This document shows, piece after piece, positions 1,203 to 60,729 of a DNA stretch of 64,000 nucleotides; within the stretch, counting starts at the first letter, position 1; each line of letters starts with the position of its first letter. A program made the position numbers and the translations under genes. Source of the stretch: Octopus vulgaris (taxonomy: Eukaryota); contig OX597814.1 of NCBI GenBank assembly GCA_951406725.2, positions 10,664,001 to 10,728,000 on the forward strand. Direction: 5' to 3'. Under the pieces are notes generated by a model that was not told the origin of the DNA, ran no database searches, and was given only the letters and a program-made list of their open reading frames with translations.

Positions 1203-1560
1203 TCAATGGAATAAAACGCAATAGAGGGCATTAAAATTTTCGGACAGATAGACGATACATAGGCGGACAAGAGAAACGATAATTAGAAGGACAGGCAAAA
1301 ATAGACGGGTTATTCTTGGCTTTCTTTCATCAGTCAAGTCCCTGAAGTCACGACCATTTCAAGTAGTTACACTTGACATGGTTCGATTTGATTTCTTCCA
1401 AAAATGTCTGTGCTAAGAGCATTAGACGTCTTTGTAAGAAAGCTAGCGAATGTGTACGGCAACAAAGACAACAAAAAAAAGAGAGAAACAAATAAACAAA
1501 AAGCGGAGAACATGGTACACAATTACGGTATTCATTTGTAAAGTGCTTGTAAGCACGCTT
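1203..1560 (-). mobile_element. (TA)n-tailed mini-element family F1
   Basis: Homologous to 24364-24643, sharing gtacacatt.gct.gctttc...taatgctcttagc...tcaagtgtaactac...actt.aCTGANGA. Confidence 0.75.
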
Positions 1561-1997: not shown

Positions 1998-2340
1998 AAA
2001 ACTTTATATATAAAGAACGTGAAATACACGAAGTGACGAACACGGAAAACAAACAAGTCATTCGAAGCCTTCATTCTTCAGTCAGAAACCGAATCATCAT
2101 GGCAAATTTCGGCTGTTTAATTCTGAGATTTGCTCCAAATCGGCCAGCCCCAAGGAAAAACTAAACTGTGGGCATTAGATTTCTTTGTTAGAAGGAAAGA
2201 ATGTGAACGCAACAGAGACGAATATGAAAACAAGAAACGAAGATAAAATTGGAAACAGTAACAGTTAAAAACAAGAATGACAAGGGGCGTCTTACGACTT
2301 TGAGACAAAATGAGACAAAAACAATTGATCAGCAAGCGTG
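1994..2340 (-). mobile_element. (TA)n-tailed mini-element family F1
   Basis: Homologous to 59970-60312, sharing ttggggctggcc...ggagca(a)atctca...gaCTGAAGA.tgaaggcttcgaatg. Confidence 0.8.
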
Positions 2341-5663: not shown

Positions 5664-8093
<2,430 letters not shown>

Positions 8094-11656: not shown

Positions 11657-11933
<277 letters not shown>

Positions 11934-24363: not shown

Positions 24364-24643
24364 AATTTCTTGCTTGTATTTGTAATTGTGTAACATCCCT
24401 GTTTTTTGCCTTTGTTGTCGTACACATTTGCTTGCTTTCTTTCAAGACCTTTAATGCTCTTAGCTTAGATTTTCTCAAGTGTAACTACCCGAAACTGTAA
24501 AGATAATTTGGTAACTTAACTGACGAGAGGTGGCTGAGAATGAATCGTCTTTGTTTTTTCCTATCCGTCTTCGCATCGTCTATCTGCCTGGATATTTTGC
24601 TGTCGTCTGTTGCGTTCGTGCTCCATTTGTGAATTCTTCCCCA
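24364..24643 (+). mobile_element. (TA)n-tailed mini-element family F1
   Basis: Homology to 1203-1560; (TA)n on both sides. Confidence 0.75.
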
Positions 24644-27933: not shown

Positions 27934-28028
27934 ATCCAAACATGAAAACACAAGGAGAAAACAACAACGCGAGGACGTGGAACAAGTATAATTTTATTGG
28001 ACGCCCAGGAAGGAAGGAAAGAAGGAGG

Positions 28029-28063
28029 GTTTAACGTTTCGCGCGGAGCTCTTCGTCAGAAAC
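28029..28063 (-). ncRNA. ultra-minimal hammerhead-like motif
   Basis: gttt-CTGACGA-agagctccgcgc-GAAAC-GTT-aaac. Stem I is gttt/aaac and stem III is reduced to the AACGTT palindrome. Confidence 0.6.
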
Positions 28064-28169
28064 ATAGGAAAAGGAAAAGGAAAGATCCAAAGAAGGGAAG
28101 ACCGAGGGAAAAAAATCTCCAACGGTACATATACATATATACATATATATGTATATATATACATACATA

Positions 28170-54975: not shown

Positions 54976-55017
54976 GGAAAAAAATAGGAAAAAAAGCAAC
55001 AAGAATGGATTAAAATC

Positions 55018-55101
55018 TCGGTACGATCGTTTCGTACGAGGACATCTTTAATAAGCTACAAAAAATGCAGTGAATACAGATGGCTCGTACTCGTCAGCCG
55101 A
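55018..55101 (-). ncRNA. minimal type-I hammerhead ribozyme (inverted copy of 55832-55915)
   Basis: Reverse-complement copy in the left arm of the inverted repeat. Confidence 0.9.
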
Positions 55102-55831
55102 AAAAATATCAGAGAATTCCCAAACATCAAAAGGGGTAGATACAAAAGAGGTTGTAAGATTAACTGCATTGAAGAAAGTTCGATTCATGGAGATCCGATG
55201 AAAGGTTTTAAACCTATAGAATTTATGCATGTCTACATATAGCTCATATTGAATATTTGATCAAGTTGTATGAAGAAATTTTCGGATACAGTCATGCAAA
55301 ATTTCTGAAAATCCGAGTAAGAGGCAAAGTGACTGCCACATCATGTAGAGGAAAGTCTGAGTAAAAACATAGTGACTGTCATATCGTGTAGAGGAACAGA
55401 TTGTTATTGAAATTTACAAGAATCGCAGATAAGTTCGATTTTTTGGAGATCCGATGAAAAAGTCTTGAACTTACAAAATTTGTGTATGTCCTTATAGTTC
55501 GTAATCCAGTTTTGTGGAGAGATTTAGGGTACAATCATGCGAAAATATCAGGGAGTCCGAATGAGAAGCAAAAATGACAGTCTTATATTGTAGTGGTTCA
55601 GGTTGTTAATGAAATTTCGGATTTTCAGAAATTTTGCATGACTGTATCCGAAAATTTCTTCATACAACTTGATCAAATATTCAATATGAGCTATATGTAG
55701 ACATGCATAAATTCTATAGGTTTAAAACCTTTCATCGGATCTCCATGAATCGAACTTTCTTCAATGCAGTTAATCTGACAACCTCTTTTGTATCTACCCC
55801 TTTTGATGTTTGGGAATTCTCTGATATTTTT

Positions 55832-55915
55832 TCGGCTGACGAGTACGAGCCATCTGTATTCACTGCATTTTTTGTAGCTTATTAAAGATGTCCTCGTACG
55901 AAACGATCGTACCGA
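55832..55915 (+). ncRNA. minimal type-I hammerhead ribozyme
   Basis: tcgg-CTGACGA-gtacgag...ctcgtac-GAAAC-gatc-GTA-ccga, with a perfect core and stems I and II. Confidence 0.9.
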
Positions 55916-56097
55916 GATTTTAATCCATTCTTGTTGCTTTTTTTCCTATTTATAATCACCCCACTTGTCGTATGGTTAACACCATATAGATATCCGGTGC
56001 ATCCTAGTTAAGGACCATATTCATGTGAATTCTTTAGAATTCACTTGAATCTCAATTACTTAACCGAATATATATATACATATATATATATATACAT

Positions 56098-59962: not shown

Positions 59963-59969
59963 TTTATAT

Positions 59970-60312
59970 GTCTGTAACGTCCTGTTTTTGTTATTATTAT
60001 TATCATTATGGTTTTTACGTATTTTCGTATCCTTACTCGTGTTGTCATTGTTGTTTTTGCGTATTTTTGTATTCTTATTCGTTCCCGTTCTTGTTTTGTA
60101 TACATTCGAGGCTTTCTTCCAAGGAATCTAATGCGCTTGGCTTAGATTTTCCTTTGGGGCTGGCCAGGTCGGAGCAATCTCAAGATTAATCAGCCCAAAT
60201 TGCGAAGATGATCCGGTTCTTGACTGAAGATTGAAGGCTTCGAATGTCCCATCCGTTTTTTTGTATCGTTTTCTAAATGTTTTGCGTTCTTGTCCCAGTT
60301 TGTGTTTTTTTA
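59970..60312 (+). mobile_element. (TA)n-tailed mini-element family F1
   Basis: Homology to 1994-2340; ends in (TA)n. Confidence 0.8.
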
Positions 60313-60325
60313 CATATATATACAT

Positions 60326-60438: not shown

Positions 60439-60518
60439 TTCTACACGTGTTTCGAAAGCCACAATTTACCAAATTCCGATTGAATAAGGAGACCATATTG
60501 TGTCTTTCTCTTCAGGAA
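60439..60518 (-). ncRNA. minimal type-I hammerhead ribozyme (mirror copy of 60650-60729)
   Basis: Lies in the left arm of a perfect palindrome. Confidence 0.87.
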
Positions 60519-60649
60519 GAAATAGGAATTCCGTTGGCAAAAACAAAAACAGAACAGAGGCGCAGCAAAACAAATCGAACGAGGCTCGTTCGATTTGTTT
60601 TGCTGCGCCTCTGTTCTGTTTTTGTTTTTGCCAACGGAATTCCTATTTC

Positions 60650-60729
60650 TTCCTGAAGAGAAAGACACAATATGGTCTCCTTATTCAATCGGAATTTGGT
60701 AAATTGTGGCTTTCGAAACACGTGTAGAA
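60650..60729 (+). ncRNA. minimal type-I hammerhead ribozyme
   Basis: ttc-CTGAAGA-gaaagacacaat...attgtggctttc-GAAAC-acgt-GTA-gaa. Confidence 0.87.

Follow-up and report, generated by a model that had tools for sequence, protein, structure and literature searches.

A putative non-circular hammerhead ribozyme, split at A9/G10.1, in a non-coding tandem repeat of Octopus vulgaris

F1 copies in the window and the build of the repeat

The 64,000-nt stretch of Octopus vulgaris DNA analysed in the present study (hereafter, the window) carries five copies of F1, a non-coding tandem repeat that is flanked by (TA)n and occurs mostly as 5'-truncated copies. All five lie where the original prediction located them. 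The copy around position 60170 and the parts of its putative hammerhead ribozyme are given below, followed by the other four copies.

59968..60313 (approximate limits), plus strand: F1 copy of subfamily A, 5'-truncated and (TA)n-flanked
60102..60118, plus strand: outer helix P0, 5' strand
60119..60157, plus strand: hairpin P5, its 3' strand directly continuous with G10.1
60158..60163, plus strand: stem II, 5' strand, with G10.1 as its first base; upstream of and detached from CUGANGA
60164..60170, plus strand: stem I-II interaction helix, 5' strand
60174..60185, plus strand: block S, with the stem III strand GCAAT, C17 at 60179 (predicted cut between 60179 and 60180) and the stem I strand TCAAGA
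60190..60203, plus strand: block G, with the 3' strand of stem II, G12-A13-A14-A15.1 and a stem III strand
60210..60216, plus strand: stem I-II interaction helix, 3' strand
60218..60230, plus strand: stem I strand TCTTGA and CUGAAGA (C3 to A9)
60231..60247, plus strand: outer helix P0, 3' strand, including the GAAT once read as core
2058..2196, minus strand: subfamily B copy with an intact core (C17 at 2127, GAAA at 2110-2107, CUGAAGA at 2081-2075)
1300..1450 (approximate), minus strand: decayed subfamily C copy with G at position 17 and a broken stem II (row L061:1538-1686)
24420..24550 (approximate), plus strand: subfamily D copy that has lost the stem II 5' strand, the interaction strand and the stem III strand through an internal deletion (row L031)
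11702..11828, plus strand: subfamily E copy, 5'-truncated within stem I, with G12 changed to A

In the copy at 60170, the GAAA position falls at 60196-60199 and G12 is replaced by C at 60196; this copy is predicted to be inactive. The minus-strand copy at 2081 was the only one in the window to pass the exact-core descriptor defined below.

Several other features were noted in the window. A near-perfect 177-nt palindrome (60496-60672) lies a short distance downstream of the copy at 60170, and an inverted repeat that is perfect over 335 nt, its arms 300 nt apart, extends over 54982-55951; these two are either fold-back elements or assembly artefacts. The minus strand has a long stop-free frame with reverse transcriptase motifs at 6046-7900, which we take to be LINE-type. 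It also has, at 28020-28065, a minimal type I hammerhead motif of the kind found in Penelope-like elements (PLEs), unrelated to F1 and comprising CTGACGA, an extra A, a 4-bp stem II with one mismatch, GAAAC-GT-TA and a 4-bp stem I.

Further F1 copies were collected by five genome searches, the best 30 loci being taken from each. The unit starts with a GCGGCGCCCG-like sequence and its 3' end lies in (TA)n, approximately 100 nt past CUGANGA. Cores are spaced approximately 680-890 bp apart. The tail of a preceding unit was located directly upstream of the unit start at 27 of the 30 loci found with the unit 5' end, loci L184/L187 hold a trimer, and inverted truncated neighbours occur beside F1 copies. 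In the 2.8-Gb genome, 4,711 exact matches were obtained for a 22-nt pattern that spans the cleavage site through GAAA (reversed control, 0); the pattern covers only part of the family, which hence has at least 4,711 copies. No ORF in the unit exceeds 33 aa, and the longest ATG-ORF on the sense strand is 18 aa. F1 thus consists of non-coding head-to-tail units with one ribozyme motif each, the build by which non-LTR retrozymes are recognised. Four RNA contig sets cover the repeat, as assembled contigs that do not reveal RNA ends, strand or circles. F1-like sequence is also present in the RNA runs X18, X19 and X16, which are labelled as three other organisms.

Core, block order and helices of the F1 motif

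Pairing and covariation were scored in an alignment (A1) of 78 copies. It was derived from 140 near-full-length matches, of which 129 remained after the removal of short and duplicate rows and 90 after a 96.5% filter; 14 rows with large deletions were then excluded and two subfamily A copies were added. The helix that closes before CTGANGA, which we assign to stem I, covaries as originally proposed, with 92.5% of the cells of its six pairs being paired and two-sided changes in four of the six. The claim that an NUH triplet precedes this helix holds for most copies, as judged from U16.1 (77/78) and a base other than G at position 17 (76/78); however, the TTC at 24474 is a deletion junction from which the true site has been removed, and the copy at 1333 has G at position 17.

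The sequence after CTGANGA does read GAAT, with T in 75 of the 78 copies, but it is not the hammerhead core. It belongs to the P0 helix, which encloses the entire motif, and pairs with an upstream CATTC. The true GAAA is located inside the supposed loop I, as part of an invariant CCGAAA. The GAAAG at 11755, previously listed as the exception to GAAT, arose by a T-to-A change private to that copy, which is decayed. When the internal GAAA is used, all of the hammerhead core elements are present in F1: CUGANGA, GAAA, U16.1-H17, G10.1-C11.1 and A15.1-U16.1. A13, A14 and A9 are kept in all 78 copies, U4, A6 and U16.1 in 77, C3 in 76, G5 and A15.1 in 75, G8 in 74 and G12 in 70, while N7 is free. Stem III joins the bases 3' of GAAA to those 5' of NUH and includes the canonical A15.1-U16.1 pair; 364 of its 385 cells are paired (94.5%). 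Stem II joins the bases 5' of GAAA to an upstream strand, includes G10.1-C11.1 and is 90% paired. The earlier failure to build stem III is explained by its partner strand lying upstream, not downstream, of CTGANGA.

We considered whether F1 may still be a hammerhead of type III in which stem I is closed and CUGANGA is followed by a variant GAAU core. The type III geometry does hold for NUH, stem I and CUGANGA, and a natural U15.1-A16.1 variant is known (PMC3088659). However, with this core, only 112 of 234 stem II cells (48%) and 218 of 389 stem III cells (56%) are paired, the invariant internal GAAA and its covarying stem are left unexplained, and GAAT itself pairs with the upstream CATTC. 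This reading is very improbable. Two other pairings were rejected. A type I fold through the downstream GAAT..GTC places after GTC bases that do not pair with those before CTGA, and a stem II drawn from the downstream GGCT pairs in 211 of 310 cells (68%) and fails in subfamilies C, D2 and E.

The blocks of F1 follow the order site-GAAA-CUGANGA (S-G-C), which is non-circular; it matches none of the circular orders CGS, GSC and SCG of hammerhead types I, II and III, nor is type I, the form found in non-LTR retrozymes, the form of F1. The GAAT-based assignment to type II/III is therefore replaced by a canonical core in S-G-C order. As judged from the sequence, the suggestion of a permuted or variant ribozyme was apt, and the predicted cut after AUC (60179) is retained in the new fold. 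We conclude from the alignment that the core is canonical and that the novelty lies in its wiring. Among the best 150 of 372 weak Rfam matches over the whole window, nearly all were microsatellite-driven miRNA models and none was a hammerhead model; none was obtained at E up to 10 for locus L007, 1400-1740. A descriptor demanding an exact core together with stems I and III, its blocks ordered site-GAAA-CUGANGA, gave 128 matches in 1.65 Mb (240 loci and the window, overlapping loci being counted separately), versus none in 4.96 Mb comprising three shuffles of the same sequence.

Across the 78 copies, 86.6% of the cells of 47 named pairs were paired and 31 of the 47 pairs showed two-sided changes, which occur in stems I, II (6/6 pairs) and III (4/5), in the stem I-II interaction helix (84% paired; 4/7) and in two flanking helices. 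None of 500 shuffles matched the pairing or covariation score, three of 500 matched the count of two-sided pairs, and sliding the partners by 1-3 columns reduced pairing to 24-43%. The shuffle control is blind to kinship among copies, the helices were derived from the same sequences, and CpG decay can imitate some G-C to A-U changes. Since the structure was derived from the aligned sequences and shuffles ignore relatedness, the stronger evidence is provided by the independently fetched subfamily F. It was obtained later and is 56-62% identical to the others, and it keeps all six helices and the gap-free junction, with TTGCT/AGCAA versus TTGCC/GGCAA.

The majority sequences of the seven F1 subfamilies are 56-92% identical, and the end of a Naiad, a PLE discussed below, is approximately 50% identical. 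In all eight groups (seven subfamilies and the Naiad end), stems II and III are preserved although their letters differ, and a link of 10-11 nt leads from stem II to stem III. Stem III reads GCAAT/ATTGC, GCAAAT/ATTTGC, ACCAT/ATGGT, ACAGT/ACTGT, GCAGT/ACTGC or GTAGT/ACTAC by subfamily, and stem II reads GGCTG/CAGCC, GGGCA/TGCCC, GGCCAG/CTGGCC or GCCCA/TGGGC. Stem I is intact in seven of the eight; the D2 majority (eight old copies) has one mismatch. Chance pairing within a decaying repeat family might be suspected from the small number of independent source lineages and from RNAalifold, which predicted no consensus pairs on the F1 alignment. It is scarcely credible given the absence of descriptor matches in the shuffles and the recurrence of six helices, in the same order and with unrelated letters, in published ctenophore, coral and octopus Naiad sequences. 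RNAfold on L007 (z = -2.4) recovered P0, P5 and stem II without stems I and III, as expected because these two cross stem II. On the comparative evidence, we regard the F1 fold as a real, conserved RNA structure.

The complete layout runs 5'-P0-P5 hairpin-[G10.1, stem II]-interaction helix-[stem III, NUH, stem I]-1 to 5 nt-[stem II, GAAA, stem III]-interaction helix-[stem I, CUGANGA]-P0-3'. Between A9 and G10.1 the chain opens: A9 leads into P0, and the other strand of P0 leads through hairpin P5 to G10.1. The stem II partner is upstream in 104 of the 128 descriptor matches and directly after A9 in two. An intact block C, with the stem II strand 0-2 nt after CUGANGA, accordingly occurs in 2/128 matches, and 68 of 309 cells (22%) are paired in that position. 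In subfamilies D1, D2 and F, the joints at A9, P0, P5 and G10.1 have no unpaired base, and mismatches affect the one or two P0 pairs closest to A9 in subfamilies A, B and E. P0 and P5 are likely to form a four-way junction at the opened link. A B-like variant without P5 (L278:3090-3209, L125:690-807) has 3-4 nt from P0 to G10.1.

Eckert et al. (2023, PMC10085705) defined blocks S, G and C and validated type SGC in vitro with an interaction helix. According to the available text, SGC was found in metatranscriptomes only, known organisms yielded one weak GCS candidate, and block C was taken as uninterruptible in the search scheme. HRIMA-1 and its variants, which represent type SGC, resemble F1 in the order site-GAAA-CUGANGA, the short linker between stems I and II (3-5 nt in F1 and 1 nt in the Naiad), the canonical core and the extra helix linking the far ends of stems I and II (PMC10085705). 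However, they occur on metatranscriptome contigs with CUGANGA joined to the stem II strand, whereas F1 is a chromosomal animal repeat opened at A9/G10.1 by P0 and P5. One extra base at the 9/10.1 link is common and conserved in PLE hammerheads (PMC4209133), so the link tolerates insertion. The core insertions listed in the available text of PMC6765202 and PMC3088659 include none by a helix at this link. PMC13725137 mentions hammerheads with additional helices, citing Weinberg 2015 and Forgia 2023; the accessible part of Forgia 2023 contained no description of them. We found no tested hammerhead opened at A9/G10.1 in print. Within the literature surveyed, with subscription papers and the Eckert supplement outside its scope, there was no report of the A9/G10.1-opened form or of permuted Naiad hammerheads.

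Relationship to Naiads and other Penelope-like elements

Craig et al. (2021, PMC8557442) reported that Naiads have no canonical hammerhead but carry strings, termed 'HHR_core' and 'HHR_half_core', that were left unexplained. The listed strings fit no descriptor, and some second halves are 35-50 nt away on either side (PMC8557442). By eye, we recognised the F1 layout in 10 of the published Naiad consensus sequences, at their 3' ends; these are from a ctenophore, cnidarians and cephalopods (Naiad_Bfor, a Clytia-section record, Amil, Aacu, Anas, two further records, Obim, Ovul and Esco). Thus, the octopus, squid, coral, jellyfish and ctenophore consensus sequences share with F1 the same predicted ribozyme layout at the 3' end. 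Stems I (TAGGAT/ATCCTA), II (GGCTCC/GGAGCC) and III (AATTGGT/ACCAATT) are perfect in Amil, which also has a 9-bp interaction helix and abutting P0 and P5; stem II is imperfect in Esco. Five nematode-section ends in File S5 of PMC8557442 (Naiad-1, -2 and -3_Nbra, Naiad_Hcon and one more record) fold, also by eye, as unsplit type CSG with long interaction helices. For Naiad_Omin, Naiad_Adux and Naiad_Scon, the permuted motif was not recognised in the 3' ends displayed. The survey covered approximately 19 of the 54 consensus ends, selected by keyword, and hence gives no frequency; names were taken from the following header. Since the same layout occurs at the ends of Naiads reported without hammerheads, the split SGC motif is likely the missing Naiad ribozyme, and it likely explains the 'half cores'.

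Two side observations concern these ends. Type CSG was previously known from two metagenome sequences. One Naiad end in File S5 (PMC8557442) has the order site-GAAA-CUGANGA with a 10-bp stem III and a 7-bp stem I; its stem II seems to be replaced by a local hairpin, and it is possibly a further variant.

In the octopus genome, an F1-type layout lies downstream of Naiad RT matches, which represent RT remnants, on the same strand at 7 of 50 loci, and a 21-nt motif of the published octopus Naiad has 200 exact matches. Similar to Naiads, F1 targets (TA)n and shows 5' truncation, partial tandems and inverted truncated neighbours (PMC8557442). However, this pattern is common to other PLE clades and, thus, is not diagnostic. 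Unlike Naiads, F1 has no ORF: the Naiad ORF (N-terminal GIY-YIG and RT) is absent from the unit, and 212 F1 loci with flanks of approximately 1.5 kb gave no Naiad ORF or RT match. There is also no clear sequence match between F1 and Naiad ends, the octopus Naiad end included, despite the same architecture and spacers. Given approximately 50% identity and no adjacent Naiad ORF, descent from Naiads, which we consider likely, is inferred from architecture and spacers. Cephalopod Naiads were reported as long inactive (PMC8557442), whereas subfamilies A and B of F1 are young.

A young, high-copy Neptune-type PLE (L151-L180, L241) with a 765-aa ORF and many intact ORFs (781 codons stop to stop) also targets (TA)n. 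At their ends, Neptune-related copies carry a minimal type I hammerhead that shows the U3-A8 core covariation. We rejected this family as the F1 parent: F1 was found in none of 30 GIY-YIG loci, several of which carry their own minimal type I motif, and three Neptune fragments in F1 loci stand apart from the F1 motif. It is a possible candidate for mobilising F1 in trans.

Minimal type I hammerheads of PLE pseudo-LTRs resemble F1 in their 3' terminal position, but differ in having a circular order, a short palindromic stem III and dimer dependence (Cervera and de la Peña 2014, PMC4209133). Metazoan non-LTR retrozymes, for which a PLE origin has been proposed, resemble F1 as non-coding tandem units with one hammerhead each, but have type I hammerheads and units of mostly ~200-400 nt (Cervera and de la Peña 2020, PMC7229834; Li et al. 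2026, 10.64898/2026.07.22.740005). RNA circles have been shown for metazoan retrozymes.

Proposed mechanism and implications

The (TA)n flanks, truncation and tandems of F1 combine the PLE insertion pattern with the build of non-LTR retrozymes (PMC7229834; 10.64898/2026.07.22.740005). We consider it probable that F1 is a non-coding tandem, non-autonomous Penelope-like retrozyme, likely Naiad-derived, with a split non-circular hammerhead that likely cuts itself once per unit. P0 and P5 may stack as a four-way junction that holds A9 beside G10.1, and F1 RNA would then fold into the hammerhead active site. Cleavage after position 17 in transcripts that read through head-to-tail copies would free unit-length RNAs of approximately 700-900 nt that are possibly circularised. 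A Penelope-like reverse transcriptase and GIY-YIG endonuclease, provided in trans, likely copy F1 RNA back into (TA)n sites. As integrated copies decay, the conservation observed reflects selection on source copies during retrotransposition.

The fold may be real and yet need help, either from strand exchange between two RNAs or tandem units or from an element protein, with little or no cleavage by a single motif. Cleavage by minimal PLE hammerheads is weak and occurs in dimeric form (PMC4209133), the SGC ribozymes tested were slow (PMC10085705), the three stems and the interaction helix cross one another, and F1 occurs in tandems. However, the 5-6-bp stem III of F1 is not a palindrome, the interaction helix and constant spacer lengths suit a monomer, and SGC monomers cleave co-transcriptionally (PMC10085705). 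We regard a need for such help as unlikely. Somewhat more doubtful still is a hammerhead-derived structure that does not cut and instead marks the RNA 3' end for binding or priming by a Penelope-like reverse transcriptase. The fixed place of the motif, approximately 85-110 nt from the 3' end, and the unclear role of hammerheads in EN+ PLEs (PMC8557442) are consistent with such a signal, but binding alone would not need the catalytic positions and the non-G17, which are kept in 8/8 groups and across phyla.

Taken jointly, the F1 and Naiad results suggest that Naiads across animals carry non-circular hammerheads, of type CSG in nematodes and split at A9/G10.1 in ctenophores, cnidarians and cephalopods, and that F1 retrozymes cut, and perhaps circularise, RNAs of 700-900 nt. 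We hold this combined view with only a modest lean in its favour. The split form would resolve the puzzle of why Naiads seemed to lack a ribozyme while carrying orphan core strings, and it would weaken the case for regarding hammerheads as dispensable in Penelope-like elements. With thousands of chromosomal copies, the split four-way-junction form would break the rule of an unbreakable CUGANGA and stem II strand, and F1 copies would offer a rich natural alignment for structure work. Until now, reports of non-circular RNA permutations have been limited to environmental contigs and a single weak case in bacteria. If the present reading is true, non-circular permutation is a common, genome-encoded feature of animals.
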